Source: Dehalococcoidia bacterium (lineage in GTDB: Bacteria; Chloroflexota; Dehalococcoidia; Lucifugimonadales; UBA3495). Taken from it: a stretch of 64,000 nucleotides of DNA. The notes beneath the pieces were generated by a model that was not told where the DNA came from, did not search any database, and worked only from the letters and a program-made list of their open reading frames with translations. Made by a program: the position numbers and the translations under genes. Shown in pieces: positions 1 through 47,805 of this stretch; the stretch's first letter is position 1; the number at the start of each line of letters is the position of its first letter. The DNA is taken from the NCBI GenBank assembly GCA_963692995.1, contig OY843611.1:2874440-2938439 (forward strand), read 5' to 3'.

Positions 1-477
1 ACACAGCATCCGGTCGCAGGACATCCCCTCCGGGTAGCCCGCGGCCGCCGTCAGCAGCAGTTCCAGCAGTTCCGGCTTCACGTACAAACGCCGGGACACC
101 TCCTCTAACTCCCCTTCCGGCAAACCCCACGCGCGTCGCGCTTGCGCCAGCCGCCGCCGTAGCCGCGCCACTCCCTGGGGCCAGCTCTCCCGCCAGGGAT
201 GCGCCGCCAGCTCTTTTTCCACCGCTTCCAGCAACGCCAAGCTGATCCGCAAGTTGGCCGCCGTCGGCTGGTAAGGCGGCCGGCAGTTCCACTTTTTCAC
301 GTTCAGGGTCCGACGCTCCGCCGGCTCCAGCCCGTGACGCCACGCCTGCCGCTCCACGTAGGCCACCGGCAGCCGACGCCGGATCAGCAATTCCCGGACC
401 CGCCGCTGAAACTCTTCCCGGAAGCGCTGATATACCCGCCCTTCCGACGCGGATGCCGCGCCATTCTTCAGGCCCAT
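1..477 (-). CDS. hypothetical protein, first 159 codons only (continues past the window start)
   Basis: Absent from the ORF track because it has no stop inside the window. My minus-strand translation from the ATG at 477 reads MGLKNGAASASEGRVYQRFREEFQRRVRELLIRRRLPVAYVERQAWRHGLEPAERRTLNVKKWNCRPPYQP... It has strong G/C at codon position 3. Its ATG overlaps the primase stop (ATGGGCCTGA), suggesting translational coupling. Confidence 0.5.
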   Translation of the reverse strand, partial: MGLKNGAASASEGRVYQRFREEFQRRVRELLIRRRLPVAYVERQAWRHGLEPAERRTLNVKKWNCRPPYQPTAANLRISLALLEAVEKELAAHPWRESWPQGVARLRRRLAQARRAWGLPEGELEEVSRRLYVKPELLELLLTAAAGYPEGMSCDRMLC

Positions 478-1739
478 AGCGCCTCGAAGTTCCGGGGGTA
501 TCCGTTCAGGCAGTTGTTGATCCACTCCCCATTTACCACGGACGGCGCGGCGGGCAGCCGTTCTTGCAGCGCGTGCATCAGCTCGCCGGCTACCTTCCCG
601 TCGCGGCAGGCCACCGCGACTTGTCGGGGCGATAGCCGGGCGATTTGATCGATGATCCGCGCCGGATTGGGACGTAGCGGCATTACTCCCGCCAAATCCT
701 CTGCCGGTCCCGCAGCCCGCAGGATCAGAAACAGCCGCGGGTCGTCGGTGATTACTAACTTCGCCGGCCGCGGCGGCAGGTTCATCCGGCCCAGCAGCGC
801 CGGCCGCTGCCCCGGCAACGCCGTCCAATTAGGCGCTTGGGCCGGCCACTGCCGTCGCGCATTCAGCTCTTGCCGCGCCACGCCGGTGAAACTCATTACT
901 CCGCCGGCATGATCCAGCTCCGCTACCGTGAGGTAGCCCGACATCCGTTCCCGCCGCCCGGCGCCCCGAAACAGCGGCGACTGGTCAATCTCTTCCGGCG
1001 TCAAGTCCTGCCGCAACAGATAGCCGCGCAGGCCGTAGCCCGAACAATATCCGATGCCCGCCGCCGCCGCCTGCTCAATAGTCAAGTCCAGCCGGGTCAA
1101 ATAGCTCACGGCCGCCGGCTCGACCAGCCGTTCCTCAAACCACAGGGCCGCTCGGGTCAAGAGCGCGGTGTTTTGGGGGCGCGGCGGTTCGTGGTAGGTG
1201 GGCGAGTGGTCGTACAAAATCGCCGCCGGCCGCGCGCCACGGGCGTTCTCCGGGTCTTGCAGCCACTGCCGCGCTTCCATGATCGCCATTCCCCAGATTC
1301 GCGCGGCGAAGGCGGCGGCGTCGCCCCGGACGCCGCAGGTCCGACAGCCGAAGAAGTTGTCGTCAACGCTGATCTCCAGCGTGCGCGTCGGCTGACGCCC
1401 CTGGCTGCGGTGAAAGGGACAGATTCCTTGCCAGCGGGCGTTCATTTCATCCCGCGGCGTCAGGTTCGCGCCGACCCCTTTAGCCAGGGGGATCAGCAGC
1501 CGGCCTTGGTCGGCGTCGGGAATGTAGCTGTTGCGGCGCTCCCGATTTGGCTCCGGCGCGGCGTCGGCGCCGGTTGCTCCGGCGGCTGCCGTTTCCGGCG
1601 CGGCGTCGGCGCCAGTTGCTCCGGCGGCTGCCGTTTCCGGCCCTTCGGCGGCTGCCTTTTCCGGCCCTTCGGCCAGGTTCGCCGTCTCGTGGCCCGGCTC
1701 GCCGCCCGCCGTTTCCGTTTCCGTTTCCGTTTGCAGCAT
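468..1739 (-). CDS. DnaG-like DNA primase (CHC2 zinc finger plus Toprim-like region) with an Ala/Glu/Thr-rich N-terminal tail
   Basis: 423-aa ORF. CHC2-type zinc-finger signature CPFHRSQGRQPTRTLEISVDDNFFGCRTCGVRGD, as in bacterial and phage DnaG primases. A later acidic stretch (KLVITDDPRLF) is consistent with Toprim. GC3 bias is strong. Confidence 0.7.
   Translation of the reverse strand: MLQTETETETAGGEPGHETANLAEGPEKAAAEGPETAAAGATGADAAPETAAAGATGADAAPEPNRERRNSYIPDADQGRLLIPLAKGVGANLTPRDEMNARWQGICPFHRSQGRQPTRTLEISVDDNFFGCRTCGVRGDAAAFAARIWGMAIMEARQWLQDPENARGARPAAILYDHSPTYHEPPRPQNTALLTRAALWFEERLVEPAAVSYLTRLDLTIEQAAAAGIGYCSGYGLRGYLLRQDLTPEEIDQSPLFRGAGRRERMSGYLTVAELDHAGGVMSFTGVARQELNARRQWPAQAPNWTALPGQRPALLGRMNLPPRPAKLVITDDPRLFLILRAAGPAEDLAGVMPLRPNPARIIDQIARLSPRQVAVACRDGKVAGELMHALQERLPAAPSVVNGEWINNCLNGYPRNFEALWA
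1555..1638. repeat. 42-bp tandem duplication (2 copies, 1 mismatch) inside the primase N-terminal tail
   Basis: ggcgcggcgtcggcgcc(g/a)gttgctccggcggctgccgtttcc occurs twice back to back. It encodes the duplicated peptide AAAGATGADAAPET. Confidence 0.9.
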
Positions 1740-1983: not shown

Positions 1984-4900
1984 ATGAATTTTTCGGGAAA
2001 TGGCGCCGGCCCGCATTTCTTTCGCGCTCCCGGACCATCCGTCCAGGTCGCCCGCGCTTTGCCCCCCCGCGCCGGCCAGCACACCCTCCTGGGCCTGGAA
2101 TCGGCCCTGGCCTCCCTGCGCTACCCCGAAAGCCGGTTCGCCTTCGAGATCTACGGACAAAACGGACAAATCTTCTACCTCGTCCGCGCCGAAAACTACC
2201 CGCCCTTGCCCTATGTCCTCGCGTCCTGCTACCCCCAGGCGCAGTTCTCCGGCCTCGGCGACTACGCCGGCCGGGACGACGAAATGGCCCGCGACTGGCT
2301 CAGCCTCCGGCACGATGAACGACAGCACGTCCTGCTGGGACACCTGGCCGCCGAACCCTATCTGCCGCTGAAAAGCTGCGACGACCAGGGCCTTCGACAA
2401 GGCGAGGTTGACCCCTTGGCTTCCATCCTCGGCTACCTCGCCGCCGTCAGTCGCGGCGGCCGTCGCGTCGGGGTTCGTCTCCTGTTCCGTCCCGCGCCGT
2501 CGGACTGGGGCGCCGCCTGGCAGCGCAACTTGCAACGCCGTCTGGACCGCCAGGACTTGTCCACTGCTCCCACCGCTCCCGCCGCCGGACGCGCTGCCGA
2601 CGCCGGCTTTCTCGAAAGCGTTCCCATCTGGGCCTGGCTGGCGCTGGCCGGCGCCGGCGGCCTGGGCTACCTCAACTGGCTATTGATCCAGCAGCAAAAC
2701 TACCTGGCCGCCGCCGGCGCCGATGCCGCCGCCCTGACCCTCAGCGCCGGCAGCGTCTTCCTCTACCGACGCCTTTTCGGCAAGCCCGCAACCCGTCAGT
2801 ATTTCGATGAGCAAATGGTCGCGGATAAACTGGCTTCCCTGGGCTTCATAACCGAACTCCAGCTGACCGCTTTCCTGCCGGCCCAAGAAGGCGACGCCAT
2901 CGCCCAAGACCTGCTCAACGGACTGGCTGCCGCCTACGTTCAGTTCGATCACTCCGCCGGCAACCGCTGGCGCTGGAGCCGGCGCCGCACCCTCAAAACC
3001 CCCACGCAGCAGCTGCTAACTTCCGAACCGGCGCCCCCGCTGCTCGGCTTTCAACCCCTCGACAAGCGCCGCGCCCACCGCTCCATACTGTCCCCCCGCG
3101 AACTGGCTACCCTCTGGCACCTGCCCCTGGGCGAGTCCGAAGTTGCCGCGATGCCCCGCGCCGCCGCCCGGCAGCTCCGTCCCTACCTGCTGGGCGTGGA
3201 TGACGGCCCCCTGGTCGGACACGTGGTGGGTTCCGACGCTCCCGTGCGCGTGTCCGACGCCGCCCTGCGCCGGCATATGCTCCTGCTGGGCAAGTCCGGG
3301 ATGGGCAAGTCCACCTTTCTCAAGCACATCTTGCAAGGCAAGTTTCAGGCGAAAGCCCGCGGCGAGGATAGCGACGCTATCGTGGTGGTCGATCCCCACG
3401 CCGACCTGATCGCCGACCTCATGCCCCTGGTGCCGCCGGAAATCGCCCATCTCACCCGTCTCATCGACATCGGACGCGAAGACCGGGCGCCGGCCATCAA
3501 TCTCATCGACCCGGACCGCTTCGCCGACCGCGACCGCTGCATCGCCAGCATCGTCGATACCCTGCGCTTTCTCTCCGGCGTCGCCTGGGGACCGCGCATG
3601 CAGGCGATTTTCGATCACGGCCTGAAGGGTTTGTATGAGTACAACGCGCACCCGGATACGCCCTATCAGCAGCGCTTGACCCTGCTGGACCTGCTGCCTC
3701 TGCTGGCCGGCGCCGAACCCGCGCCAGCGGCGGCGGCGGCTAGTAGCGGCGGCCGCGGCCGACGGCCGCCGCCGGCGGCGCCCTCCGCTTTTCAGCAGCA
3801 AGTCCTGGCCCGCGTCAGCGATCCCGAAGTCCTGGCCTGGTTCCGCCGCTTTCAGGGCTGGAGCGATCAACTGCGCTCGGAAGCCCTCGCTCCCGTAGAA
3901 ACCCGCATCAGCGCCTTCGCTTCCGACGTCCGCGCCAGAGGCGTTCTGGGCCAGTGGGAAACTACCGTCTCCTTCAGCGATGCCCTGCGGGAGGGCCAGA
4001 TCATTCTGGTCAACCCGGCCAGCGGCGTGGTTGGCCCCTGGGTCTCCGCGCTGCTGGGCAGCACCGTGGTCGGCCTGCTGGATTCCGCGCTACGGGAACA
4101 GGAAAAACTGCCTCCGGACCAGCGCAAGCGCTGTCTGCTGGTCGCCGACGAATTTCATACTATCGTCGGCGCCAACTGGGAAGAACTTCTGGCCGGCATC
4201 CGCAAGTACGGTTGTGCTGTTTTATTGGCAACGCAAAGCATGGCCCGGCTGGATACCCCGGAACGTAACCTCAAGGACGGCGTGCTGGCGAATGTCGGCG
4301 GCATTGTTTGCTACCAGATGTCCGGGGGCGACGCCCGCATTATCGCCGATCAAGTCGGCCGCGAATCGGGCATTACCGAAACGGATCTGGTCAGCCTTGA
4401 CCCCTATTACGCCTACGTCAAACTGACGACGGGCGAGTCCAGCCTGCCGCCCTTCGCCATTCGCACCCGGGAGCCGGACGCCGGCGACCCGGCGGCGGCG
4501 CAGCTGATCATCGACGGCTTGCCTAATTACACCAGGGATCGCCGGGAGTCGCTGGCGGCCATTGCCCGCCGCATGGCCGAACACGAAGGCTTTCCGCTGC
4601 CGGCCGAGGCCGGCGCGACCGGCGCGGCGGCGGCCGGTTCCGATAGGGCCGGCGGCGGTGCCGGCGCGGCGCCGGAAGGAACCCGACTGCGCGGCGTGGC
4701 GGAAGATGCCGTAGCCGCCAGTCAGCTGGACGAAACCACTCTGGCGATGATCCAGCGCCATCTTCACGATCCCGGAGTCCAGGCGGTGTTTGACGCCGGC
4801 CTGAAAGGCCGGGTCAACAGCCTGGTCGCCCAGGGTCGTCGGGAGGACCGGGAGCGCATTCGCCAGGAAGAACGGGAGCGGGCGCAACGGGAGCGGCCGG

Positions 4901-5121
4901 CGGCCGGAACGCCGGCGGCCCCGTCGGAACCGCCGTCGGAACCGCCGTCGGAACCAACCGCGGAACGGGCCGCCCCGCCGTCGGAACCAACCGCGGAACC
5001 GGCCGACATCTTCCCGCCGCTACCACCCGAACCGCCAGCGCCGCCGGTTGAACCGGAACCCGAATCGGCTCCCGCTTTACCTTTCAATCGCGGCCGCAGC
5101 CGCATGGGCAAACGCGGCTGA
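1984..5121 (+). CDS. TraD/VirD4-like type IV coupling protein / FtsK-HerA-class P-loop ATPase with a Pro/Glu/Ser-rich C-terminal tail
   Basis: 1045-aa ORF. Walker A is LLLGKSGMGKSTFLKHIL. Walker B and the following region read CLLVADEFHTIVGANWEELLAGIRKYGCAVLLATQSMARLD. A hydrophobic segment (WAWLALAGAGGLGYLNWLLI) lies N-terminal to the ATPase. The C-terminus has PSEPPSEPPSEPTAE repeats. The start codon is uncertain. Confidence 0.65.
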   Translation: MNFSGNGAGPHFFRAPGPSVQVARALPPRAGQHTLLGLESALASLRYPESRFAFEIYGQNGQIFYLVRAENYPPLPYVLASCYPQAQFSGLGDYAGRDDEMARDWLSLRHDERQHVLLGHLAAEPYLPLKSCDDQGLRQGEVDPLASILGYLAAVSRGGRRVGVRLLFRPAPSDWGAAWQRNLQRRLDRQDLSTAPTAPAAGRAADAGFLESVPIWAWLALAGAGGLGYLNWLLIQQQNYLAAAGADAAALTLSAGSVFLYRRLFGKPATRQYFDEQMVADKLASLGFITELQLTAFLPAQEGDAIAQDLLNGLAAAYVQFDHSAGNRWRWSRRRTLKTPTQQLLTSEPAPPLLGFQPLDKRRAHRSILSPRELATLWHLPLGESEVAAMPRAAARQLRPYLLGVDDGPLVGHVVGSDAPVRVSDAALRRHMLLLGKSGMGKSTFLKHILQGKFQAKARGEDSDAIVVVDPHADLIADLMPLVPPEIAHLTRLIDIGREDRAPAINLIDPDRFADRDRCIASIVDTLRFLSGVAWGPRMQAIFDHGLKGLYEYNAHPDTPYQQRLTLLDLLPLLAGAEPAPAAAAASSGGRGRRPPPAAPSAFQQQVLARVSDPEVLAWFRRFQGWSDQLRSEALAPVETRISAFASDVRARGVLGQWETTVSFSDALREGQIILVNPASGVVGPWVSALLGSTVVGLLDSALREQEKLPPDQRKRCLLVADEFHTIVGANWEELLAGIRKYGCAVLLATQSMARLDTPERNLKDGVLANVGGIVCYQMSGGDARIIADQVGRESGITETDLVSLDPYYAYVKLTTGESSLPPFAIRTREPDAGDPAAAQLIIDGLPNYTRDRRESLAAIARRMAEHEGFPLPAEAGATGAAAAGSDRAGGGAGAAPEGTRLRGVAEDAVAASQLDETTLAMIQRHLHDPGVQAVFDAGLKGRVNSLVAQGRREDRERIRQEERERAQRERPAAGTPAAPSEPPSEPPSEPTAERAAPPSEPTAEPADIFPPLPPEPPAPPVEPEPESAPALPFNRGRSRMGKRG

Positions 5122-5137
5122 ACTCCTGGAGCCAACC

Positions 5138-6682
5138 ATGATCGCCTCCCCCATTTCCCGTCCCGCCAGCGCCGCCGGTTCCGCCAGCCGCCGGCTCAGT
5201 CCGGCCGCCGCTCGATTAGCCGCCCTGCTCTGGCAAATGCCGCTGGCCTCCGCCGCCGACCTGGCCGATGTTTCCGGCGGCAGCCTCTCTTCCGCCTATG
5301 CCGCGCTTCAGGAACTGGAAAGCCTCGAACTGGCCGGCTCCGCCCCCCTGGGCGCTTCCTGCCGCGTCGTCCGCCGCTACTGGCCCCAAGCCCCCGACGA
5401 CGCCAGCGTTCCGCCGGACTGCTCCTATTACCTGACCCGCGCCGCCCGCCGCAACCTGCTGGCCCGCCTGCCGGTCCTCGAATGGTTCTATCGCATTCCC
5501 GGCTACCTCAGCCGACAATCATCAACTTCCCCAATGACCGCCTTTGCCTGGCATACCGACTACCCTTGCGACGCCGCCGTGCAGTTTGACCAAGGCTGGG
5601 CCGCCCTCTTCTACGCCGGCGTCTGGCAGGACGCGCCCGCCCTGCGCCAGCGCCTGGCCCGGCTGGGGCCGGACCTGGCCGATTCCGCCGCCGACGGCGG
5701 CCCTTCCTGGCCGGGACTGTTCGTTTTTGTGGTTCCCGACGCCTGGCAGTCCGACCTGACCCAGGAAGTTGTCGCCGAATTCGGCCTGCAACACAACAGC
5801 ATTATCTGCGACGTCAGCCGCGAACTGGTGTTCGGAACCGTCAATTGGGGTCTCAGCCGGGGCTGGCCCCGACGCCGCAAATACTACTCCGTGACCGCCG
5901 CCGATACCCGCGGCTGGCCCGACTTCCTTCGTCGCGCCGGCCAGACTAACGCCAACTCCCGCGGCGGCCTGGTCAGCCGCATCCTCGCTTTTTTGGAACA
6001 ATGGCCCGGCGCCAGCTACAGCCAACTCCGCCGGCTCCTCGGCGGCAGCGGCAGCGCCGTCTCTATCGTTCTCGACAACATGCTCGCCGCCGACCTCCTG
6101 GTCAAAGTCCGCAGGGGTTATTACCCAACCCGATCCAGCCTGCTCCGCGCCGCTCGCCGGGACCGGGTGCATCACCGCCTTCCCCAGTCTCGCCTGGGCA
6201 AGCCCGCCGCGCAACTCCGGCTGCAACGGCATGACCAGGGCGTCATTCGCCTGATCCAGTCCTTCGCCGACGCCGGCTGCCCCGTCGCTCCCGGCGGACG
6301 CGCCATCGACGACGCCGGGCCCCAGGGCAAACTCAACCCCGACGCCGTGATCCGCGTCGCCAGCCCCCACGGCTTCGGCTGGCACTACCTGGAGTACGAG
6401 CGCCGCGCCCGTTCCCCCGCTACCCTGGCTCACAAGCTGCGGAGCTATTTGATGCCGGCACGCGTTAACGATTGGCCCATCCTCTTTGTCGTGGACAAGC
6501 CGGCCGCCGAACCCCTCCTCTGGGAGGTCGGCCGCGGACTGCCCCTGCTGACCACTACCGCGGAACGGGCTTTTGCCGAACCTCCGGTTGACAACCCCGG
6601 CGTCTGGAGCAGCTTCGGCGTGCCGGCCACGCTGCGCCGCGATCCGGCGGACCGCGACCGGCCATCCGCCGCCAAACCGTAA
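5138..6682 (+). CDS. replication-relaxation (Replic_Relax)-like protein with winged-helix-like N-terminal regions
   Basis: I trimmed the start to the ATG at 5138 (MIASPISR), after the upstream stop. The C-terminal pattern HDQGVIRL...GKLNPDAVIRV...WHYLEYERRARSPATLAHKLRSYL...WPILFVV matches the H / PDa / E-x-D/E-R / K-l-x-x-Y / vlfv layout I recall for the PD-(D/E)xK-like Replic_Relax family. Two HTH-like stretches are present. Confidence 0.55.
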   Translation: MIASPISRPASAAGSASRRLSPAAARLAALLWQMPLASAADLADVSGGSLSSAYAALQELESLELAGSAPLGASCRVVRRYWPQAPDDASVPPDCSYYLTRAARRNLLARLPVLEWFYRIPGYLSRQSSTSPMTAFAWHTDYPCDAAVQFDQGWAALFYAGVWQDAPALRQRLARLGPDLADSAADGGPSWPGLFVFVVPDAWQSDLTQEVVAEFGLQHNSIICDVSRELVFGTVNWGLSRGWPRRRKYYSVTAADTRGWPDFLRRAGQTNANSRGGLVSRILAFLEQWPGASYSQLRRLLGGSGSAVSIVLDNMLAADLLVKVRRGYYPTRSSLLRAARRDRVHHRLPQSRLGKPAAQLRLQRHDQGVIRLIQSFADAGCPVAPGGRAIDDAGPQGKLNPDAVIRVASPHGFGWHYLEYERRARSPATLAHKLRSYLMPARVNDWPILFVVDKPAAEPLLWEVGRGLPLLTTTAERAFAEPPVDNPGVWSSFGVPATLRRDPADRDRPSAAKP

Positions 6683-6702
6683 TGACAACTCAGGAGGCAG
6701 TG

Positions 6703-6984
6703 ATGTCCGAGATGGATCACAAGCAGGACCGGCAGCGGCTGGTTCAGTCCGTCGCCATGCGCCGGCTGAAGCGACTGATGGATATTTGGAACGACGCCAA
6801 CTGCGTTATCGTGCTGGACCTGAAGGGTCAGCGCATCGGCTGGCGCGCTTATCCCGTAGCGGCCTGGGAAGCAACTGATGCCTTTGACGCACCGCAAACC
6901 TTATGGATCAACATGGAAATCGTATCCGACAATGACAACGCTGGGGCAACTCCCGCAACCGGCGGCGCCGCCGGTCCGGAATAA
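6703..6984 (+). CDS. small hypothetical protein (93 aa)
   Basis: ORF track 6682..6984. AGGAGG at 6692-6697 favours the ATG at 6703 (MSEMDHKQDRQ...). It is tightly packed after the upstream gene. Confidence 0.55.
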   Translation: MSEMDHKQDRQRLVQSVAMRRLKRLMDIWNDANCVIVLDLKGQRIGWRAYPVAAWEATDAFDAPQTLWINMEIVSDNDNAGATPATGGAAGPE

Positions 6985-7107: not shown

Positions 7108-9813
7108 TTAGCCGTACAACGGTCCAAACTCCGCGACGCTAACGCCGAAAATCCCCACCGGCGCGTCCGCAGTATTCCCCACGTCGCCCCGGTAGATCAC
7201 CCGCTGGCCGACTAGCGCGTCGCTGCTTGCGCCGCCCCAGGCCACAACGCGGCCGTCGGCAGCGCAAAACCGCGCCGCCCCGGTATCGTCCGCGGTCACC
7301 CAGTAAGCCTCGTCCGCAATCAAGGCGCCGTCCGGCTCCGTCGTGTAACCCGATAGCCAAGTCGGCTCCGCAACTCCGGAACCGTAAAAAGCCCGCAGCT
7401 CCGCTTCCGGCAAACTGAGCGCCGTCCGCTGCGCCGCAACGCTGAACTCAGCGTCTGGGCCTAACTGCGCAACTTGCAAGGCGGCGACCCTCAGCCACGC
7501 CGCCAGGGTCTCCCCCGGCGCCGCGCCTAAAGTCGTCATCTCCTGGTTCCAGGCCAGCATTAACCGCCGCTCCAGCTCAACCGTTTCCCGGTCAATGGCC
7601 TCAGTCCGGTGCTTGCGCTTCGCCCAGGCCATCGTTTTCTGCCGATTAACCCGCGCTTTGCGACGCCAGGCTAAACTCCATAGCGCCCGCCGGTCTCCGT
7701 GGGCCAGGCGCGCCGACGCCAGCAGTTCCTCGGCCAACGGATGCGTCAGCCAGCGCAGCGGCCCGTTGCTGAGGCGCTGCCGCGCCAGCTGGGCCCGGCG
7801 CATGCGCCGTCCCGCCAACGCTCCCCCCTGCCGCAGTTCCGCGACCCGGGGATCCTCGGCGTAACGCGGCTGAAAAGGCCGCTCTACTCCGTAACGCTCC
7901 TGCCAGGCGGCCGCGATTACTTCCCAGCGCACCCGCAACGCCGGCCGCCAGGCCGACGCGCCCTGGGCAATCTTTTGGCAAATTACGTCCAATAGCCCGG
8001 CAATCACCGGCGCCGCGTCGCCTTCGCCCTTCGTGGTCGTATCCAGGATGTCCGAAAAGGACGTCTTGCTCTCCGCAGGATCAAACCAGCCGCAAGCCAG
8101 CAAAATGCTCTGCAAATGACAAGTCAACCCCGTTTGCCCGACCAAAGGCAGGTTCCGCGCCGTATTCGCCAGCTGTCGGTCTTCGTCCCAATCAAATTGC
8201 GTCGGCGCAACCGCCGCCGGATGATAAACGTCCGCTTGCCGCGCCAAGTCCGGCCAAGCCGCCCCTTCCTGCCGCAATCCGTAAGCCCAAGCCCCGGTTC
8301 GCGCCATCAGCAAACGGGCGTCTTCCGACGTCAAACGCTTCAGCAAGCTGCACCCCGGATCCCGGGGCAAACGCCAGATCAGCAGACGCCAGTCCGCCGG
8401 AGCGCGCTCCGTCAGTACCCACTCAACTCGGTCGTCGTTGTCGTGACCGCCCAGCAAAGCGCGGGCTGCGTCGTTCTCCGCCGCGTTGAAGCCAATGCCG
8501 GCCAGCTGCGGCCCGCGCCAGCGCAAGCCAGCGTAACCGGCCGCCGGAGCTTCCTGCCCGACGTGGGCCGGACAATACAGATAAGCCGTGCCGCCCGAAA
8601 GCATCACGTTGGGAAAGTCCGGGTAATTACGCCTTTCCAAACTCTTTTGTTGCCGCAAGCCCGGAGGCCGCAACAGCGTCCAGACCAGCGGACTGGCCCA
8701 GGGACTGCCGCCGCCGGCTTCCAATGCCGTCAATAACGGCGCGTCCCGCTCCAGCCATTCCAGTCGACGCAGTACGTCCGCCTTTTCTCGCCAGGGCAAG
8801 TTCCAGTCGGTTTCCGACGGAGGCGCCAACGCTTCCGCCAATTCTTCCCGGACTGCGCCAGTCGGCGCGTCCAGCAACTCCCGCAACCACGTCGTGTTTT
8901 CACACTGGCCTACTACGTTATGCACCGCGCTGATCTCAGCCGCGTCTAGGTGATGCAATACCGGCTCCTGACCCTGAAACCAGGACAAGGCCCGCAAACT
9001 GCCGCGGGGCCGCTTGGTCGGCGTCGCATTTACGCTAATCAGCGTAACGCGATCCGAGGTCAGCTCACCGCGCACCGCGCAGGCGGCCGTTACCAGGTCG
9101 CAGTCGCCGTGGGGCCACTCCCGGTCCGGGATGATGATGTAGTTCCCTTTGATGTATTCCTCGCCGACGATTTTCAGCTGCAACTGGTCCGCGTGGTCAA
9201 TCAGCGACTCCGCCACTCCGCTGCCGGTCAGCAGCGCCAGCGCGGCCTTTTCGCGGATCGCCCCGCCGCCATCGTCGTGTTCCAGTTCCGCTTTGCTATA
9301 GCCGACGCGCAGATAATTGCCTTCGCCGATCCATAACTCGCCGGGCGGCGACGGACGCGGGGACAGCAACTGTCCGTGGGCCGTCGAAAGCAGACTGCCC
9401 AGCCGTTTGTTGGCTTGACTGCCCGGCGCGCCGCTTTTGATGCGGAGGCCGTAGTGGGCCGCCAGGCCGGCCGCGTCCAGATCGGCGTGTTCGCCCACGG
9501 CGATTACCCCGTGGCTGGCGTTAATTCGCGCCGCATAAACCCGCCGGTTCGCATCCTCGCCCAGCCAGGAGGCCAGGTCCGTCGGAATGGCTTCGGCGCA
9601 GTCCGGCGTTACCGTGATCAGCAGCGGGTGGCGAATGCCCCGCTCCGCCGCCATTTTGAAGAACATCGCGTTGTTATGCAGGCCGACGCTTCCCGACCAC
9701 GTAGTAGTGAACCACGGGCCGGATACGGTCTTGACCAGCCCTTTCGCTACCATCTCCCAGAGGGGACGGCAGCGCAGTACCCATTCCAAATTCTCAGTTT
9801 TGATGATTTCCAT
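7108..9813 (-). CDS. large protein of unknown function (901 aa); possible divergent two-barrel (YonO / cellular RdRP-like) polymerase
   Basis: The track ORF 7108..10212 was trimmed to the ATG at 9813 (MEIIKTENLEW), which is preceded by AAGGAG. In-order motifs are QLKIVGEEYIKGNYIIIPD (9124-9186), then GGTAYLYCPAHVGQE, then LLGGHDNDDRVEWVL (within 8410-8595). These resemble my recollection of the RdRP/YonO signatures QIRyGGyKGvvavdP, vlvaRnPclhPGD and sGsDlDGD. No alignment was run. Confidence 0.8.
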   Translation of the reverse strand: MEIIKTENLEWVLRCRPLWEMVAKGLVKTVSGPWFTTTWSGSVGLHNNAMFFKMAAERGIRHPLLITVTPDCAEAIPTDLASWLGEDANRRVYAARINASHGVIAVGEHADLDAAGLAAHYGLRIKSGAPGSQANKRLGSLLSTAHGQLLSPRPSPPGELWIGEGNYLRVGYSKAELEHDDGGGAIREKAALALLTGSGVAESLIDHADQLQLKIVGEEYIKGNYIIIPDREWPHGDCDLVTAACAVRGELTSDRVTLISVNATPTKRPRGSLRALSWFQGQEPVLHHLDAAEISAVHNVVGQCENTTWLRELLDAPTGAVREELAEALAPPSETDWNLPWREKADVLRRLEWLERDAPLLTALEAGGGSPWASPLVWTLLRPPGLRQQKSLERRNYPDFPNVMLSGGTAYLYCPAHVGQEAPAAGYAGLRWRGPQLAGIGFNAAENDAARALLGGHDNDDRVEWVLTERAPADWRLLIWRLPRDPGCSLLKRLTSEDARLLMARTGAWAYGLRQEGAAWPDLARQADVYHPAAVAPTQFDWDEDRQLANTARNLPLVGQTGLTCHLQSILLACGWFDPAESKTSFSDILDTTTKGEGDAAPVIAGLLDVICQKIAQGASAWRPALRVRWEVIAAAWQERYGVERPFQPRYAEDPRVAELRQGGALAGRRMRRAQLARQRLSNGPLRWLTHPLAEELLASARLAHGDRRALWSLAWRRKARVNRQKTMAWAKRKHRTEAIDRETVELERRLMLAWNQEMTTLGAAPGETLAAWLRVAALQVAQLGPDAEFSVAAQRTALSLPEAELRAFYGSGVAEPTWLSGYTTEPDGALIADEAYWVTADDTGAARFCAADGRVVAWGGASSDALVGQRVIYRGDVGNTADAPVGIFGVSVAEFGPLYG

Positions 9814-9935
9814 TTTTCGGCTCCTTTTACGGCGACCGTAAAAAAATGAGACCGTAGCGCAATGGCTACGATCTCCGTTTGCTGGGTTGACTGGTGTTGG
9901 GTGGGTTGGGTTGGGTTGTATTGGCCGGGGTCGGA

Positions 9936-11114: not shown

Positions 11115-11360
11115 TCAGCACAGGGCGTCTTCTCCGCAGTAGCAAACCGCGGAGCTTACTCCGTAGCATTCGGTGTGGATCGCGGCGCCGCAGCGGCCGC
11201 AGTTCAGGCGGTCTTCGTATCCGATGATGGTCTCGTCGCAATAGCCGCAGGCGTCCGCTGCCTCCGTCGCGGCGCGGCGGCTGAGCCGCTGCATCGCTTG
11301 GCAGCGGCGCACCGGCGCGGGCGCCAACGCGGGCAGTTCCATGGGGTATGCGTAGGTCAT
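11115..11360 (-). CDS. small Cys-rich zinc-finger-like protein (81 aa)
   Basis: AAGGAGAA upstream of the ATG. Cys pattern CGYCDE...CGRCGAAIHTEC...CYC. Confidence 0.6.
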   Translation of the reverse strand: MTYAYPMELPALAPAPVRRCQAMQRLSRRAATEAADACGYCDETIIGYEDRLNCGRCGAAIHTECYGVSSAVCYCGEDALC

Positions 11361-13319: not shown

Positions 13320-14138
13320 ATGAGATCGCCAATTCGGTTCAGCGCAATGTCCACCGCTTACGCTTACGCCAACGCCCCACGCCGCGCCCTGGCCCGACGC
13401 TTGCAGGATCAAGTCGGCGCCGACACCCTGGCCGAATGCTTGGGCGTGACGCCTGACGCTCTGCCCGACCTGCTGGCCGACGCGGTTCCCTGGCCCAGCG
13501 CAGCCCTGGCCGGACTGGTGCGGCTGGCCCAACGAGTGGATCGGGCCAGCCCGGCGCAACCGGCTCCGCCGCCGGCAGAACCGTCGTCGCAATCGCAACC
13601 GTCTCTGCAATCGCAACCGTCACCGCAACCGCAACCGCCGCCCAACGCCGCGCCGCCGCTGATCTCCAAAGCAGCCCGACAGCAGGACCTCTATCGCCTC
13701 GTCGCCCTGGCCCGCCTGTGGGGCCTCAGCGACCAATTGCCCTTTGATGAATTCTGCCGCCTTCAGGAACTTCTCGCCCAGCTGGAACTGGCCCTGATCT
13801 TGGATTTCGGAGTCAGCGCTCCCCTGCCCGGCGAAAGATGGGACCTGCGCCGCCAGTGGCGGGAGGCCGAAACGCGCCTCAGCCGACTGCGGGAAATCCG
13901 CCAGGCCCGCGCCGCCTGGCAGCGCCGGGGCTGGCGACGCTGGCGGCCGGCCGGCAAACTACCCGATCCCGCCGCTCTGCTGCGCCAACTCATGGCCGAA
14001 GCCGACCGGCTGACCGTCGCCGCCGACGATTGCCCCGGCCCGGCCGGCGGCCTGGTTCTCAACCGCGCCGGCCTGGAGCCAATCCTGCAAGCCCGCTGGC
14101 GACAACCCTCCGCTGGAACCCCCGCAACCGCGCCTTAG
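13320..14138 (+). CDS. hypothetical protein with HTH-like N-terminus and a Pro/Gln/Ser-rich linker
   Basis: Track ORF 13140..14138 trimmed to the ATG at 13320; an alternative ATG lies at 13347, after a TATAAT at 13316-13321. The N-terminus reads ARRLQDQVGADTLAECLGVTPDALPDLL. The linker reads SSQSQPSLQSQPSPQPQPPP. Confidence 0.55.
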   Translation: MRSPIRFSAMSTAYAYANAPRRALARRLQDQVGADTLAECLGVTPDALPDLLADAVPWPSAALAGLVRLAQRVDRASPAQPAPPPAEPSSQSQPSLQSQPSPQPQPPPNAAPPLISKAARQQDLYRLVALARLWGLSDQLPFDEFCRLQELLAQLELALILDFGVSAPLPGERWDLRRQWREAETRLSRLREIRQARAAWQRRGWRRWRPAGKLPDPAALLRQLMAEADRLTVAADDCPGPAGGLVLNRAGLEPILQARWRQPSAGTPATAP

Positions 14139-15244
14139 TCCAGCCAGTCCCGCAGGGACCGCGCCCCCGCTTGCTCCCGCAATAAGCCCAAGGCTCGCGT
14201 CTCAATCTCCGGCAGACGATCCTCGTCAATTCCTATCAGCAGCGCCGTCTCCGCCGGACTGCGCTCCCCTTCCGCCGCCAGGCCGTAGCGCAATCGGATT
14301 ACTTGGGCCTCTAGCTCCGGCAGTCGGTTCAGTAGCCCGTCCATCTCTTGACTCAAGCCGCTGTCCAGACAGTCCGCCATGGTGTGGTCGGCGGCGGCCA
14401 GCAGCCCCGCGTTCCGCTCTTGCTCCGCCGTCTCGTCGTAAAGCAAAGCGTCCAACGATAGCGTCTGCCGGTTCAGCTCCCCCTCGGCCGGCTCCGCCTG
14501 CCGCGCCCGCTCCTGGGTCACCCGCTCGTTCAGATAAATCCCGTAGCCCTGGCGCAGCCCGCCGCGCTTGACCGCCGTCCGAATGTAAAACCGCGCCAGC
14601 GTGCCAAAGCGGTTGCCCCGACGGTGATCGTAACGGTTCAGCGCCTGCAACAGCCCCCAGCGGCCTTCCTGCTCCCGGTCTTCCTGGGGCATATCTCCGC
14701 AGTCGCTCTCCCGGGCGATGCGCTGGATCAGCGGCTCATAGGCTACCAATAACGCTTCCCGACTAGCCTCGGCAGCTTGTCGCCAGCCCCGTCCGTCTTC
14801 CGTTAACGCCGGCTCCAGCCGCCGCAACTCCCGTCGCAACCGCCGTCCATCCCGTGCGCGCTCCGCTAAATCGGACAGCGGCCCAGCCCACTGCGCCGCC
14901 GCCGGCGACAACGCCAGCCGGCATAATGACAATTCCGCCAGCAACTCAAGCGATGGCTCGCTGCCCAAGGCCCGCGCCAGCCGTCGGCTGACGCCGCGAC
15001 TAATGCACCCGTCAATCACATCGGCAACGAAGGGGTCTTCCTGAAAATCGGATACTGTCGGGTTTTCCAGCCAGGGCCGCCGCAATCGGGTCAGCGACCG
15101 GGCGATTAGCCGGCTCCCGGCGATTTCCTCAAGGAGCAGCGCGTTGGCTCCCGCCGGGTCCGGCGCGTCATTCAGCGCGGCGGACAGTTTCCGCGCCACG
15201 GCGATGTTCAGCAAATGACGCTGTTCCGCGGAGTAATCGAGCAT
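14135..15244 (-). CDS. sigma-70 family RNA polymerase sigma factor (369 aa) with an N-terminal extension
   Basis: Region 2-like sequence is EQEGRWGLLQALNRYDHRRGNRFGTLARFYIRTAV. Region 4-like sequence is LPELEAQVIRLRYGL...SPAETALLIGIDEDRLPEIETRALGLLRE. The start was set at the ATG at 15244 (MLDYSAEQ). The 917-aa track ORF upstream of it is antisense run-on. Confidence 0.75.
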   Translation of the reverse strand: MLDYSAEQRHLLNIAVARKLSAALNDAPDPAGANALLLEEIAGSRLIARSLTRLRRPWLENPTVSDFQEDPFVADVIDGCISRGVSRRLARALGSEPSLELLAELSLCRLALSPAAAQWAGPLSDLAERARDGRRLRRELRRLEPALTEDGRGWRQAAEASREALLVAYEPLIQRIARESDCGDMPQEDREQEGRWGLLQALNRYDHRRGNRFGTLARFYIRTAVKRGGLRQGYGIYLNERVTQERARQAEPAEGELNRQTLSLDALLYDETAEQERNAGLLAAADHTMADCLDSGLSQEMDGLLNRLPELEAQVIRLRYGLAAEGERSPAETALLIGIDEDRLPEIETRALGLLREQAGARSLRDWLD

Positions 15245-15394
15245 AGGGCCGGTTTCCGTCGCCGGGGTCTCAGTCCCCGGCATGCGCGTTTGTCCCGGAA
15301 TATACCCTGCGCCCCCGGAACCGCGCAAGGCCGGAGCGTCATCGCCGGCGCAGTCTGTTATCTGCCGGACAGTCGTGAAAGGAGGTCCCGGTTC

Positions 15395-16033
15395 GTGCTG
15401 CGGCCGTTTTTGCTCATCGCCGTCGGTTTCCTGCTGACCCTCGCCCTGGCCGCCTGCGGCGGCGGCGGCCCGTCCAACGATGATGATGATCTGGACCTGG
15501 ATATTGACTTTTCCGTGGAGGGGGGCGTTTTGAGCGTTGACGAAATGCAGGTGCTGGCGCAAAGCCGCCTGGCGCGGGTCGATTTCCTCGTCGGCTGGCT
15601 GACTCTCGCCGAATCCTTTCAGGAAAAGAGCCGCGGCCTGCGCCAGCTCGCCGAGCTGGAACGGACCGGTCTTGACGTGCGTTGGGTACGGCAAGTCCAT
15701 GACCTCAGCCGAAAGAACGACCTGATCTATGCCGAAGCCCAGCGCCTGGCTCCGCCCCAGGAAGCCGGCCAGGCTTACGCCCAACTGCTGGCCGACTTTA
15801 CCGCCGGCGTCGATTCCTTTCACCTGTCCAGCGGAAGATTGCTTGACGCCGCCATCATTTTCGGCCCCGCCTCGCGGGCTTACGACGATCTCAATGCGCT
15901 GGATCAAACGGCTTTCGACTCGGCCCGCCGGCAGGCCCGCTTTTATGAAATGGACGCCGCCCTGCTGCTGCAACGGACCGTAGCCGGACTGGAAGACGCC
16001 ATTGACGCCTTGCAGGTTGGCGACGGGGAATGA
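15395..16033 (+). CDS. lipoprotein (212 aa)
   Basis: GTG at 15395 follows GAAAGGAGG. The signal peptide with lipobox reads LIAVGFLLTLALAAC, followed by an Asp-rich stretch. Confidence 0.65.
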   Translation: MLRPFLLIAVGFLLTLALAACGGGGPSNDDDDLDLDIDFSVEGGVLSVDEMQVLAQSRLARVDFLVGWLTLAESFQEKSRGLRQLAELERTGLDVRWVRQVHDLSRKNDLIYAEAQRLAPPQEAGQAYAQLLADFTAGVDSFHLSSGRLLDAAIIFGPASRAYDDLNALDQTAFDSARRQARFYEMDAALLLQRTVAGLEDAIDALQVGDGE

Positions 16034-16057
16034 TGAACCAAAAGGCCGGAGGCTGCG

Positions 16058-17230
16058 ATGATGGCTGAGGATCAACGAAATTTCGACTACGGGGATGCGT
16101 CCGGGCGGCCACCGGACAATCCTCCTTTCGGGGCGGCTCCGCCGGGCGGTTTGGGCGGTTCCGGCCATCCTGCCGCTCCGCCCGGCGGCCCCACTGCTCC
16201 GCCGGGCAACCCCGGCTACCCCGGCGATCCCGGCAATCCCAATTACCCCGGCTACGCCGGCGGTCCCGGTTATGATCCCGCCGGCTCCTATCAATACCCC
16301 TATCCCGTCGCTGCCAACGGCGGCTGGAAAGCCCTGCTCCGTCGCCCGGTCGTTCTGCTCGGCCTGGCCCTGGCGCTGCTGCTCCCGATTAGCGTCGGAG
16401 CGCTTTTCCTGCTGCAAAGCGGCGCCGATAGCAATGACGCCAACCTTGAAACTTCTGACGATGCCCTGGTTCCGAACCTCGATTTGGACTTGGACTTGGA
16501 CCTGGACTCGCCGACGCCGGAACCCGTCGCTACTCCCGATGCCGATGCCCTGCTGCATCAGCTGGCCCAGCTCGGCTTTACCCCGCCGGCGACGGCTCCC
16601 GATCCCGCCGCGCCGGCCGGCCCCGGCAATAACTCCGCCGCTCCGCCCGGCGCCGCTCCTTGGACCTCCTTCGCCCAAAGCGGCGGCGTCGAACAAGACC
16701 CCTTGCCCCGAACCGCCGCTCCCGCCGCTGCGCCGAGCCTGATCGAAATCGACGTTATCTACCGCCTCGGTCCCGCAACCTGGCACCGGATTCAAGCCCA
16801 TGTGATGATGCAGCAACTGTCCATTCAGCCCCTCAGCGAATGGGATGCTTCCTACAGCGCTGGCCGGCTGGCCCTGGCCCAGGGACATCTGGAAAGGGCG
16901 GCGGCGGCATCAAGCCCCGTCGAACAGGATTTGCAAAACGATGCGCTCAACCTGGCTACGCGCGTCCGGGAATATGTCGCAATGATGCTGGACGGCCAGC
17001 GGCACCTCGAAGACGCTTACGACCTGCTGGCGGAAATGCAACGGGCGCTGGACGGCAACGCAGACGGCTGGTATGGCCTCACTGAGGAAGAACGGGGTCA
17101 GTTGAACCGGATTGCCTCCGACGATCTGTTGCAGGCATTGTTCGCCTTCGACCGGATCATGCAAACCTACGGCTGCTCGATCTGCGGCGAAGTCTATCGC
17201 CAGCCCGCCGAACCGGGCCGGCCCTCGTGA
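16058..17230 (+). CDS. bitopic membrane protein with a Pro/Gly-rich N-terminal domain (390 aa)
   Basis: GGAGG upstream of the ATG. PGNPGYPGDPGNPNYPGYAGGPGY repeats are present. There is a single TM segment (VVLLGLALALLLPISVGALFLL) and an (LD)n stretch. Confidence 0.65.
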   Translation: MMAEDQRNFDYGDASGRPPDNPPFGAAPPGGLGGSGHPAAPPGGPTAPPGNPGYPGDPGNPNYPGYAGGPGYDPAGSYQYPYPVAANGGWKALLRRPVVLLGLALALLLPISVGALFLLQSGADSNDANLETSDDALVPNLDLDLDLDLDSPTPEPVATPDADALLHQLAQLGFTPPATAPDPAAPAGPGNNSAAPPGAAPWTSFAQSGGVEQDPLPRTAAPAAAPSLIEIDVIYRLGPATWHRIQAHVMMQQLSIQPLSEWDASYSAGRLALAQGHLERAAAASSPVEQDLQNDALNLATRVREYVAMMLDGQRHLEDAYDLLAEMQRALDGNADGWYGLTEEERGQLNRIASDDLLQALFAFDRIMQTYGCSICGEVYRQPAEPGRPS

Positions 17231-18166: not shown

Positions 18167-18943
18167 GTGCTGCGACTTTTTCAACTAGCCACGCTGGCCG
18201 CGCTGGCCCTCGTCTGGTCGGCCTGCTGGTCCGCCGGTTCGCCGCTGCCGCCGGCGCCGCTGCCTACGGTGGCCCGCGCTACGGCGACGCCGGTTCCGCC
18301 CGCTCCCGAAATAGTCGCCGCAACCCGGCAGGCGGCGGAACGCATTCGCTTGCGCGAACAGCACGGCGAACTCTTGCAGCGATCCGCCGTCGCGCCGGGG
18401 GATTTCAACCCCCAAGGCCATTTGCTAGGCTCCGTCCAGCAGGCCCAGCGGGACCGGGCGCGCGCCGCCGCCGCCCGCGACGCCGGGCTGACCCCGCGGA
18501 CGGCCCCGGACCCGCCTCAGTTCGTCCGGCCCTACTGGTATCGGGACGGCGCCGGCGACCTGACCCCGCCGGGAGTGAATTCCCCCTACGCCGATCTGCT
18601 GCCGCCGGCACGGGCCTGCGCGCCTTACAGCGCCCTGGCCGACGGCCCGCGACGGAACGATTTCTACCGGGAACTCTATCGGCACGTCGCCGAACTGCTG
18701 CCCGTATCACCGCCGTCCCAGGATGATTTTCTGGCGCAAACTCAGGAACAATTGGCCTGGGAACTGCTGCCCGGTCCCGGTCCCGACGTCCGCCTGCGCC
18801 TTTGGCTGACCTTCCTGCACGACGGAGGACGTTATCTGATCGGCGGTGAAGCGCTAGGCGCGCTGGAAGACGTGGATCACGTCCGCTGTCCCGTCTTCGG
18901 AAGTTTCGATCATCAGTCGGTAGAGCTGGCGAGGCTGGAATGA
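18167..18943 (+). CDS. secreted / lipoprotein-like hypothetical protein (258 aa)
   Basis: The signal-like N-terminus reads LRLFQLATLAALALVWSAC. Its end overlaps the next start (ATGA at 18940). Confidence 0.6.
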   Translation: MLRLFQLATLAALALVWSACWSAGSPLPPAPLPTVARATATPVPPAPEIVAATRQAAERIRLREQHGELLQRSAVAPGDFNPQGHLLGSVQQAQRDRARAAAARDAGLTPRTAPDPPQFVRPYWYRDGAGDLTPPGVNSPYADLLPPARACAPYSALADGPRRNDFYRELYRHVAELLPVSPPSQDDFLAQTQEQLAWELLPGPGPDVRLRLWLTFLHDGGRYLIGGEALGALEDVDHVRCPVFGSFDHQSVELARLE

Positions 18944-22875: not shown

Positions 22876-23505
22876 ATGGACATTATCATCAACATAATCT
22901 GGGACGGCGGCAAGTGGGTGGTGGGCATTGGCGCCGCTGTACTAGTGATAGCGCTGCTGATTAGCGTGGCTCGTTATGGAATGTCCGCGGGCAATCCCCA
23001 GTCGGCCGCCTCGGCCCGGGCGGCCATGGTCGCCTGCCTGTTTGGCCTGGTCGCCCTGCCTTCGGTTCTGGTAGGCTATCGGCTTTTCTATGCCGACGTC
23101 ATCGCGCCCAATACCGGCAGCGATGTCGCCGTCTTTGAGGTTTCGTGCAATCGCATTTTGCAACGGCAACTGCAAGCTCGGCCAAATGTCGATACAAAGG
23201 GGGAGGTGGATCAGTTAATTAGAGCAATACAGTTGCAGAAGCAGGATTGCGCTAAGGATGCCTGGTCATTGACCCCTTTGAAGAGCAATGCGAGCTTGTG
23301 TACCACACCCTCTAATGGAGATGTAGCAACTTTTCTTCCGCTAGATTCAAACATACCTTTGAAAGAAGCTGTGGGTGCTGAAGGAATCGGGCGCGCGCCC
23401 GGATATATTGTGGTGGTATTTGCGCATGGTAGCAGTAGTGGACTGACGGCTGCGAATGATTGCTGGGGGTACTCCGCTGATCTGGGCCAATGGGTCGCCG
23501 GTTGA
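22876..23505 (+). CDS. small two-TM membrane protein (209 aa) with a compositionally distinct C-terminal domain; possibly VirB2/TrbC-like
   Basis: The N-terminus has two hydrophobic helices (WVVGIGAAVLVIALLISV and MVACLFGLVALPSVLVGY). The C-terminal ~110 codons (about 23170-23400) have much lower G+C than the flanks. Confidence 0.55.
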   Translation: MDIIINIIWDGGKWVVGIGAAVLVIALLISVARYGMSAGNPQSAASARAAMVACLFGLVALPSVLVGYRLFYADVIAPNTGSDVAVFEVSCNRILQRQLQARPNVDTKGEVDQLIRAIQLQKQDCAKDAWSLTPLKSNASLCTTPSNGDVATFLPLDSNIPLKEAVGAEGIGRAPGYIVVVFAHGSSSGLTAANDCWGYSADLGQWVAG

Positions 23506-29198: not shown

Positions 29199-29235
29199 CT
29201 TGCCCGCTCACCGACACCCGCGAAGGACAGAAAGC

Positions 29236-45303: not shown

Positions 45304-45468
45304 GCTGACTCCTTTCTTCCTTGAGGGTAACGAAAAAGTCTTGGCGAGATGCTGAGACTTTTGGTCAGATGGCGCGACGTGGCGAGAACGCAATTTGATC
45401 AACGCTTTTGCCGAACTTGGAGCGAGCAGGGGCGTAGCAACAGCGCTATTAGGCAGCGCTTGTGGTTG

Positions 45469-47147: not shown

Positions 47148-47167
47148 GATGGCACTATCTGGGCTGG

Positions 47168-47197
47168 ATGTTAGTTAGAGGAAGGGCAATTTGTCAA
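47168..47197 (-). promoter_or_regulatory. candidate sigma-70-type promoter for the ImmA/IrrE-DUF4411 operon
   Basis: On the minus strand: TTGACA (47192-47197), 18-bp spacer, TAACAT (47168-47173). It lies ~20 nt upstream of the ATG at 47147, with no SD, so the transcript may have a short leader or none. Confidence 0.3.
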
Positions 47198-47207
47198 ACG
47201 GCATGGT

Positions 47208-47736: not shown

Positions 47737-47805
47737 GGCTTGATCTCCTTGGATCAGTTCAACGCTTTTGCGAAATTGGTTGCGGAGTATTTTTGCGGTT
47801 GGGCT

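Follow-up and report, generated by a model that had tools for sequence, protein, structure and literature searches.

A conserved, unannotated gene of a Dehalococcoidia conjugative-type element encodes a possible relative of YonO-like two-barrel RNA polymerases

Results

Gene model and flanking sequence

The stretch of DNA analysed here (the window) comprises 64,000 nucleotides (nt) of contig OY843611.1, positions 2,874,440 to 2,938,439, from the assembly GCA_963692995.1 of a Dehalococcoidia bacterium, and from its gene content it looks like a conjugative element throughout. On the minus strand, positions 7108..9813 hold an open reading frame (ORF) that translates without interruption to its stop codon into a protein of 901 amino acids (aa), a member of an unannotated family. 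This family has invariant residues, a conserved gene neighbourhood, and a weak-to-moderate profile similarity at the catalytic motifs to the YonO-like RNA polymerases (RNAPs), whose active site lies between two double-psi β-barrels (DPBBs). From these features we infer that the protein would have a DPBB fold and be catalytically active, which template it may use, and what part it may play in conjugation.

Direct reading of the sequence places the ATG start codon at 9813-9811 and a ribosome-binding site, AAGGAG, at 9821..9826, 7 nt upstream of it. A mechanical ORF list also holds a longer version beginning with a GTG at 10212 (1034 aa). The 901-aa model is preferred because the extension overlaps the upstream small gene and spans a terminator-like hairpin (9848..9875, minus strand). 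This hairpin, an 11-bp stem followed by ATTTTTTT, lies between the upstream gene and the ribosome-binding site, about 20 nt upstream of the latter, in an AT-richer stretch (52% GC at 9700-9899). Terminator-like sites in the region are not enriched over shuffled sequence and the hairpin is a candidate only; it could be an operon boundary or an attenuator. The gene had been placed at the end of a minus-strand operon, and since the hairpin intervenes, simple co-transcription with the upstream small genes is uncertain. Conservation of these small genes was not detectable in the loci of relatives.

A rare family without annotation

An exhaustive phmmer search of 1.84 billion representatives, clustered at 50% identity, detected, at E < 1e-3, another 44 proteins, all of them distant (25-31% identity). 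P0005 (859 aa) heads the list with E = 1.7e-68 and 31% identity, and most of the 44 are 900 to 1100 aa long and align over nearly their whole length. The description of the protein as an orphan in the original prediction thus holds for annotation libraries, none of which matched it, and fails for sequence space at large. Eleven family proteins were looked up. No source gives a name to any of them, and each derives from a metagenome assembly or from a metagenome-assembled genome (MAG). A profile search of genome contigs with a four-sequence alignment located members of the P0008 type in Dehalococcoidia MAG chromosomes and found nothing else, and the same contigs searched with the 901-aa protein alone gave no match. 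A word-indexed search of 5.8 billion proteins returned only the protein's own 90% cluster, which consists of three near-identical 901-aa versions and a 43-aa fragment, and returned this cluster alone when the family alignment was the query. Within the cluster (P0001-P0003), a second 901-aa version (P0002) differs by about 20 substitutions and may represent either another copy of the element within one genome or another assembly; the remaining version lies on a 17.9-kb contig.

The 901-aa protein has no Pfam or PDB-sequence match even at E = 10 and no PHROG match at E = 1, and the 34 members that we aligned have no meaningful Pfam, NCBIfam or PHROG match. No family member was found by tblastn against plasmid and phage collections or by a scan of IMG/VR. 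The PADLOC models match neither the window protein nor P0005 or P0008, and membership of a defence system was rejected on this ground. The family is rare, unannotated and captured by no current model library.

Conserved residues

Residue counts below refer to the 34-member family alignment (A1), and nucleotide positions to the minus strand of the window. Eight columns are invariant (K222, G407, D458, D460, D461, P483, S587 and D591), and K136, R137, D181, G182, R481, G489, G562 and a few others are nearly so. K136 and R137 (33/34 and 31/34; nt 9403..9408) belong to a GKxxKRxR motif in a helix just before the first β-rich domain. D181-G182 (nt 9268-9273), kept in 32/34, is aligned by hhalign to the invariant D249-G250 of the YonO-like proteins. 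K222 (nt 9148-9150), within IKGNYIIIPD, is present in 34/34 and the following G223 in 26/34, the pair being aligned to YonO K271-G272; the family consensus around this lysine is xKGxxxIxPD.

The candidate metal-binding cluster, D458-N-D460-D461 (nt 8431..8442), retains all three aspartates in 34/34 and has the family consensus L-D-[TG]-x-D-x-D-D. The spacing is DxDD in 24/34 members, including the window protein, and DxDxD, one residue longer, in 10/34. Four of these ten carry DxDGD followed by K, T or E and a hydrophobic strand, as in the DNDGDKALII of YonO. The HDNDD of the window protein had been taken as the mark of a divergent or inactive copy; as DxDD is present in 24 of the 34 members, it is the family norm and not a lesion of this copy. 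Twenty residues after the Asp motif lies a family-wide RxP (R481-x-P483, nt 8365-8373). Further on, G562, N566 (23/34; H in the window protein) and S587-x3-D591 (nt 8041..8130) form a possible, weak counterpart of the [IL]GxxSN and [IV]DxxK motifs of YonO-like enzymes.

The three segments on which the original prediction was built are all present, essentially where it had put them. The first, QLKIVGEEYIKGNYIIIPD, covers residues 212-230 (nt 9124-9180; its end had been set at 9186, two codons too far), the second, GGTAYLYCPAHVGQE, residues 407-421 (nt 8551-8595), and the third, ALLGGHDNDDRVEWVL, residues 452-467 (nt 8413-8460). The distance between the last two, given as about 40 residues, is 43 from P415 to D458. 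That K222, G407, D458, D460 and D461 are invariant and D181 and G182 kept in 32/34 shows that the motifs are not chance features of a single sequence.

An N-terminal CxxC...CxxC...H...H zinc module occurs in 18/34 relatives and not in the window protein. Upstream of the family gene and in the same orientation, an 81-aa Cys-rich ORF (11115-11360, minus strand) has weak zinc-finger matches (C1, PHD and Prok-RING). The idea that this ORF is the split-off zinc module of the family was not supported (E = 1.2).

Predicted structure

AlphaFold2 with the family multiple sequence alignment produced a confident model of the 901-aa protein (mean predicted local distance difference test, pLDDT, 84.3; predicted template modelling score 0.84), with pLDDT values of about 87-95 around the conserved motifs; prediction from the single sequence was unusable (pLDDT 36). 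In the model, a small α/β domain (residues 1-130) and a helix with GKxxKR (131-141) precede a first β-rich domain (residues ~147-275, nt 8989..9375), which the model and the hhalign comparison described below suggest to be a β-like DPBB. After a helical insertion of low conservation (residues ~279-396, nt 8626..8979), delimited with DSSP and the alignment, comes a second β-rich domain (residues ~404-513, nt 8275..8604), a putative β′-like barrel on the same kinds of evidence. It contains G407, P415, a helix, the Asp cluster and the family-specific hairpin with R481-x-P483, in the order strand 404-413, P415, strands 429-433 and 436-441, helix 444-453, Asp cluster, strand 462-471 and RxP hairpin. 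The remainder is a large helical region (residues 547-810) and a small C-terminal β domain seen by DSSP (residues 818-895, nt 7129..7362). The succession of strands and helices in the two β-rich domains is compatible with a putative double-psi fold.

Profile comparison with YonO-like enzymes

For profile-profile comparison we assembled a YonO-like set from YonO of SPbeta and the corresponding proteins of PMBT24, TR-TP1, 0305phi8-36 (gp99), Perkons, D-1873 and two metagenomic phage contigs, adding six YonO homologues from a protein search before alignment. In alignment A5, which omits the two metagenomic contigs, D249-G250, R266, K271-G272, R492, P494 and D535/D537/G538/D539 are invariant, as expected, and so are G593, N597, D625 and K628. 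As a positive control, the YonO-like profile matches QDE-1, an RNA-dependent RNA polymerase (RdRP), in the PDB at E = 9e-6.

In hhalign, residues 140-280 of the family align with YonO 215-300 (probability 78.8%, E = 1.6e-5, score 33.2), pairing GDGsG with DGcG, Q212 with R266 and KG with KG. None of 200 column-permuted templates reached this score (mean 10.0, standard deviation 2.0, maximum 18.1), and reversed sequences scored 11.7. The match does not depend on restricting the template: against the whole YonO-like alignment, the barrel-1 region was the top local match of the barrel-1 sub-profile (E = 5e-4) and the top match of the full family profile (E = 0.0084 and 0.0046, probability 5-8%).

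The second domain behaves similarly at lower scores. Family residues 398-520 align with YonO 465-560 at E = 0.0054 and a score of 20.1 that none of 200 permutations reached (maximum 17.8), pairing P415 with the proline of the YonO RSP motif and DxDD with DxDGD; against the whole alignment the best match of this segment is again the DxDGD motif (E = 0.084). The core as a unit, family 140-520 against YonO 200-570, scored 35.9 against 14.3 ± 2.3 for permuted templates (0/100). Cross-controls of barrel 1 against barrel 2 gave noise (E 0.14-0.54).

This register of the second domain, P415 with RSP and DxDD with DxDGD, is favoured because it reproduces the canonical β3-xP-β4-β5-α-Asp loop-β6 order of E. 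coli β′; the secondary-structure order of the confident AlphaFold2 model fits this succession. On the favoured register, the later RxP hairpin would be a family-specific addition.

The IGxxxN...SxxhID of the family and the [IL]GxxSN...[IV]DxxK of YonO and QDE-1 have a similar spacing, a weak correspondence that appears in a restricted comparison (3/200 permutations reach its score) and is absent from the unbiased scan. Several YonO-like proteins share with the family a helix inserted after DG.G; examples are gp99 (DGQGTMLPSAAVRTAHRLEL) and, on the family side, P0008 and P0011 (DGSGMYRESAAKELIRASGA).

Eight residues have been called universal in two-barrel RNAPs (Ruprich-Robert and Thuriaux, PMC2919709). 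Invariant or nearly invariant residues of the family coincide with catalytic ones on this list: D181 corresponds to Qde1 D709 and YonO D249, K222 to K743 and K271, and D458/D460/D461 to Qde1 D1007/D1009/D1011. The distance from the lysine to the Asp motif is 236 aa in the window protein and 264 in Qde1, and that from the proline to the Asp motif is 43 aa in the window protein, 43 in Qde1 and 41 in YonO.

A conserved block of conjugation genes

The family gene belongs to a four-gene block found in the same relative orientation at the loci of P0005, P0007, P0008 and P0012, proteins that are 25-31% identical to the window protein. The block consists of the family gene, a convergent ~490-aa homologue of the window's 5048-6682 product together with a coupling protein, and a divergent homologue of a 423-aa CHC2 protein; across the four relative loci its proteins have BLASTP identities of 30-50%. 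In the window, the coupling protein is of the type IV kind (DUF87/HerA and TrwB_AAD_bind matches; 1984..5121, plus strand). The convergent neighbour (5048..6682, plus strand) is a 544-aa relaxase-like protein with weak Replic_Relax and MarR/HTH matches, 30-33% identical by BLASTP to its counterparts at four relative loci (L001, L003, L014 and L015). The fourth member of the block is the 423-aa protein with a CHC2 (DnaG-type) zinc finger (468..1739, minus strand). In relatives, the family gene and the relaxase-like gene are often separated by one for a staphylococcal nuclease-like (SNase-like) protein (16021-16683 in L003; 13262-13927 in L013/L014); in the window an unrelated 100-aa ORF (6682-6984) takes this position. 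By this synteny, the family protein is a core component of the DNA-processing and coupling module of this class of element. On this basis we propose a role in transfer-associated RNA synthesis, as priming or as early transcription.

Elsewhere the window encodes a TrbL/VirB6-like protein (18940-22791), a pilin-like protein (22876-23505), a Toprim/D5_N primase-helicase-like protein (29200-31911, plus strand) and a VirB4/TraG-type ATPase (54670-56994). No tRNAs and no housekeeping genes were found in the 64 kb. A sigma-70-type factor, with Sigma70_r2 and r4 matches, is encoded in the C-terminal part of a 917-aa mechanical ORF (14135-16888, minus strand). Likeness to sigma-70 is confined to the C-terminal ~200 residues (a 421-aa stretch was scanned), and the sigma factor gene, which ends at 14135, is probably much shorter than the ORF.

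Directly preceding the VirB4/TraG-type ATPase, a 1734-aa ORF without Pfam match (49428-54632, plus strand) lies in a stretch of 73-75% GC, the highest in the window, flanked by sequence of 58% GC. A cargo-like cluster on the minus strand (44572-49356) encodes a DUF5131 protein (E = 2e-104), a protein with an IrrE/M78 peptidase domain and a 516-aa leucine-rich-repeat protein.

Discussion

A probable divergent two-barrel enzyme in conjugative DNA processing

With a probability of roughly 0.6, we consider these observations to be best explained by a nucleotidyl transferase of the two-barrel type, divergent and single-chain, that would take part in the DNA processing of conjugation by acting on transferred DNA as primase or transcriptase. 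Homology as such, that is, a true relationship to the two-barrel polymerases whether the family is active or inactive, appears likely. The narrower proposition, an unrecognised lineage of active single-chain two-barrel RNAPs or primases that has contracted its metal loop to DxDD, does without two residues regarded as universal in the superfamily and is dedicated to conjugation by type IV secretion in Chloroflexota-type bacteria, is tentative; it would include, for example, an enzyme that acts on or travels with the transferred single strand and primes or transcribes it in the recipient.

Under the preferred explanation, the gene product would be a highly divergent member of the DPBB superfamily, on its RdRP/YonO side, with an active site between two β-barrels. 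The first barrel (about residues 147-275) would contribute D181 and K222, and the second (about 404-471) D458/D460/D461, its first half probably being formed by residues of about 240-290, before the helical insertion. The Asp cluster would hold the catalytic Mg2+, with the canonical DxDGD loop shortened to DxDD in most members, and two lost universal basic residues may have been replaced, perhaps by the family-specific K136/R137 and R481. The enzyme would synthesise RNA on the DNA of the element during transfer or establishment, possibly by priming complementary-strand synthesis or by early transcription of the incoming single strand. The conservation of the gene within the coupling-protein/relaxase-like/CHC2 block of a conjugative element with type IV secretion makes such RNA synthesis the most likely job.

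A number of results weigh against this explanation. Some concern detection. The hhalign signal appears only once distant YonO-like phage proteins are included in the template, and a shallow YonO alignment (56-100% identity) gave nothing; HMMER gave about 0 bits both for the family profile on YonO-like proteins and in the opposite direction, and the family profile against PDB sequences returned noise only. Full-length HH probabilities are low (5-8%). Of the checks that had been suggested for the two-barrel reading, the Pfam RdRP profile PF05183 matched 0/34 members at E ≤ 1, and Foldseek with the AlphaFold2 model found no polymerase in the PDB: its best match, at E = 0.46, was to protein kinases with a template modelling (TM) score of 0.05, and none of QDE-1 (2J7N), the cellular and phage RNAPs or PolD was matched. 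As the PDB scan of a confident model gave no match, no solved relative is visible to Foldseek. In BFVD only two proteins matched, A0A6J5NTF7 and A0A6J5M9G6 (E = 2e-21 and 7e-18, TM about 0.5-0.56, 12% identity), both uncharacterised and labelled 'uncultured Caudovirales phage'; a wider, still more divergent family with this predicted fold may exist in virome data.

Others concern the residues themselves. Of the eight universal residues the family does not conserve two basic ones, the equivalents of Qde1 R738 (YonO R266, Rpb2 K979) and of R962 (YonO R492). The first of these columns, in barrel 1, is Q in 25/34 or Y in 9/34; the window protein has Q at this position (212), opposite YonO R266, and the nearby K214 is not conserved. 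At the second, P415 is correctly placed, 43 aa from the Asp cluster, yet only 18/34 members have it, and no arginine is conserved there. The register of barrel 2 is ambiguous: an alternative hhalign register, pairing R481xP483 with the RSP of YonO, scores 19.2 (1/150 permutations). The window protein has the DxDD spacing, not DxDxD. Finally, the role of primase or transcriptase is not obviously vacant, because the element also encodes Toprim/D5_N and CHC2 proteins and a sigma factor; priming may be duplicated, or shared out between transfer and replication. The core of the original prediction, its YonO/RdRP-type reading, is thus supported in part, and fares better than expected: its motifs coincide with invariant positions, some relatives carry DxDGD, hhalign chooses the catalytic regions, and the secondary-structure order fits. 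PF05183, Foldseek, the low full-length HH probabilities and the lack of a conserved RxP arginine and of a basic residue at the first such position of barrel 1 speak against it.

Alternative explanations

The absence of a structural match to any polymerase in the PDB or BFVD, the lack of a Pfam RdRP match, the low full-length probabilities and the two missing basic residues, which are defining ones, would also suit a metal-dependent enzyme of novel fold, unrelated to DPBB polymerases, that takes part in conjugative DNA processing and resembles YonO and the RdRPs by convergence or coincidence. A nuclease, phosphodiesterase, relaxase accessory protein or strand-processing enzyme would be examples, and the adjacent relaxase-like gene and, in relatives, the SNase-like nuclease gene would be in keeping with them. 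We regard this as unlikely, if still deserving of weight, since the best local matches in unbiased scans are the two YonO-like catalytic motifs, in the right order and far above permuted controls, and since some members carry the canonical DxDGD. Foldseek against the PDB found no nuclease, relaxase, Toprim, archaeo-eukaryotic primase (AEP) or Pol-β-like fold, although nucleases, Toprim, AEP and Pol-β-like folds are usually easily detected, and no His or Tyr is invariant among the 34 members, as one would be in HUH relaxases. Identity as an HUH/Replic_Relax relaxase, or as a Toprim or AEP primase, was rejected on the same evidence together with the absence of Pfam matches.

A true two-barrel homologue might instead have given up polymerase activity and serve as a structural or DNA/RNA-binding part of the transfer machinery. 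Among sequences only 20-30% identical, the three aspartates, D181 and K222 are kept with no or almost no exception, a pattern of a maintained rather than a decayed active site, and HDNDD belongs to the family at large and not to a damaged window copy. The contraction of the Asp loop to DxDD in 24/34 members, the window protein included, does speak for loss of activity, as does the loss of the two universal basic residues (PMC2919709), although the rpb1-R446A substitution is reported in the same paper to be tolerated in yeast. On balance inactivity seems improbable. That the ORF is spurious or decaying, with motifs that arose by chance, has nothing but the absence of annotation in its favour and is refuted by 44 representatives that are homologous along the full length (best E = 1.7e-68), the family alignment, the confident AlphaFold2 model, a good ribosome-binding site and conserved synteny, which leave it a negligible probability.

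Comparison with known systems

YonO has been shown by experiment to be a single-chain DNA-dependent RNAP (PMC5467207), and RdRP-like DPBB polymerases have been predicted on bacterial selfish elements, possibly as primases (PMC3417536, PMC7824862). Given YonO and these RdRP-like enzymes, mobile elements that carry a two-barrel polymerase are in themselves already known, and our primase proposal echoes that of Aravind and colleagues for the RdRP-like enzymes of bacterial selfish elements (PMC3417536).

The YonO-like examples that we compared (SPbeta YonO, 0305phi8-36 gp99 and the 'RdRP' of Enterocloster phage PMBT24 and of Thomasclavelia phage TR-TP1) share with the window family a single chain of about 840-1200 aa, carriage by mobile elements and the motif order DG.G, helix (SAA...L in gp99 and the family), KG-hhh-P/D, xP, ~40 aa and Asp cluster, the last followed by K/T and a hydrophobic strand. 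The family differs from them in a similarity that is invisible to HMMER and Pfam, in having Q or Y at the equivalent of YonO R266, in lacking the RSP arginine (R492) and in having mostly DxDD instead of DxDGD. Its C-terminal half is long and helical, an extra RxP hairpin follows the Asp motif, and 18/34 relatives, though not the window protein, have the N-terminal CxxC/CxxC/H/H zinc module. Its context is conjugative, whereas that of YonO is a phage late-gene region.

With QDE-1 of Neurospora and the eukaryotic cellular RdRPs (PF05183; 2J7N) the family shares the bipartite motif logic, D...K, then ~240-260 aa, then the Asp triad with a proline ~43 aa before it. Unlike them, it has no PF05183 or Foldseek 2J7N match and retains only 5-6 of the eight invariant residues. 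QDE-1 also works on single-stranded DNA, the form in which conjugative DNA travels.

The NCgl1702-type enzymes represent the same idea, that of a two-barrel polymerase with a single subunit which a mobile element other than a phage carries. They reportedly often lie next to DNase genes and have been proposed as primases; the SNase-like neighbour in relatives of the window family may be set beside these DNase neighbours. No protein with a RefSeq name, NCgl1702 for example, is closely related, because the 44 relatives that the exhaustive phmmer search returned bear no source name. Sog of ColIb-P9 and TraC of RP4 are conjugative primases of the Toprim/DnaG type that are transferred to the recipient. 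The analogy with them is functional: the window protein would likewise be a DNA-processing part of a conjugative element, with plausible RNA synthesis on the transferred strand; unlike them it shows no Toprim or AEP signature or structural match.

Significance

Two-barrel polymerases include all cellular RNA polymerases, the RdRPs of eukaryotic RNA interference and archaeal PolD, and divergent single-chain members such as YonO, crAss gp66 and the P23-45 enzymes have informed ideas on the minimal catalytic core and on the origin of transcription. With moderate confidence, we regard three aspects of the window family as new: that no model library captures it, that it deviates at defining residues, and that it is linked to type IV secretion conjugation modules of uncultured bacteria. 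The family is tied to the coupling-protein/relaxase module of conjugative elements in poorly studied bacteria, among them some Dehalococcoidia MAGs. Should the homology prove wrong, the family would still be conserved and structurally novel, an enzyme that probably depends on metal and belongs to a new type of conjugative element. If the preferred explanation is correct, the family would be a new branch within the superfamily of two-barrel polymerases and would redefine its minimal core as one that keeps the Asp cluster and the aspartate and lysine of barrel 1, does without two of the basic residues called 'invariant' and has a shorter metal loop. It would then also provide conjugation with an element-encoded step of RNA synthesis that does without DnaG/Toprim or AEP primases.

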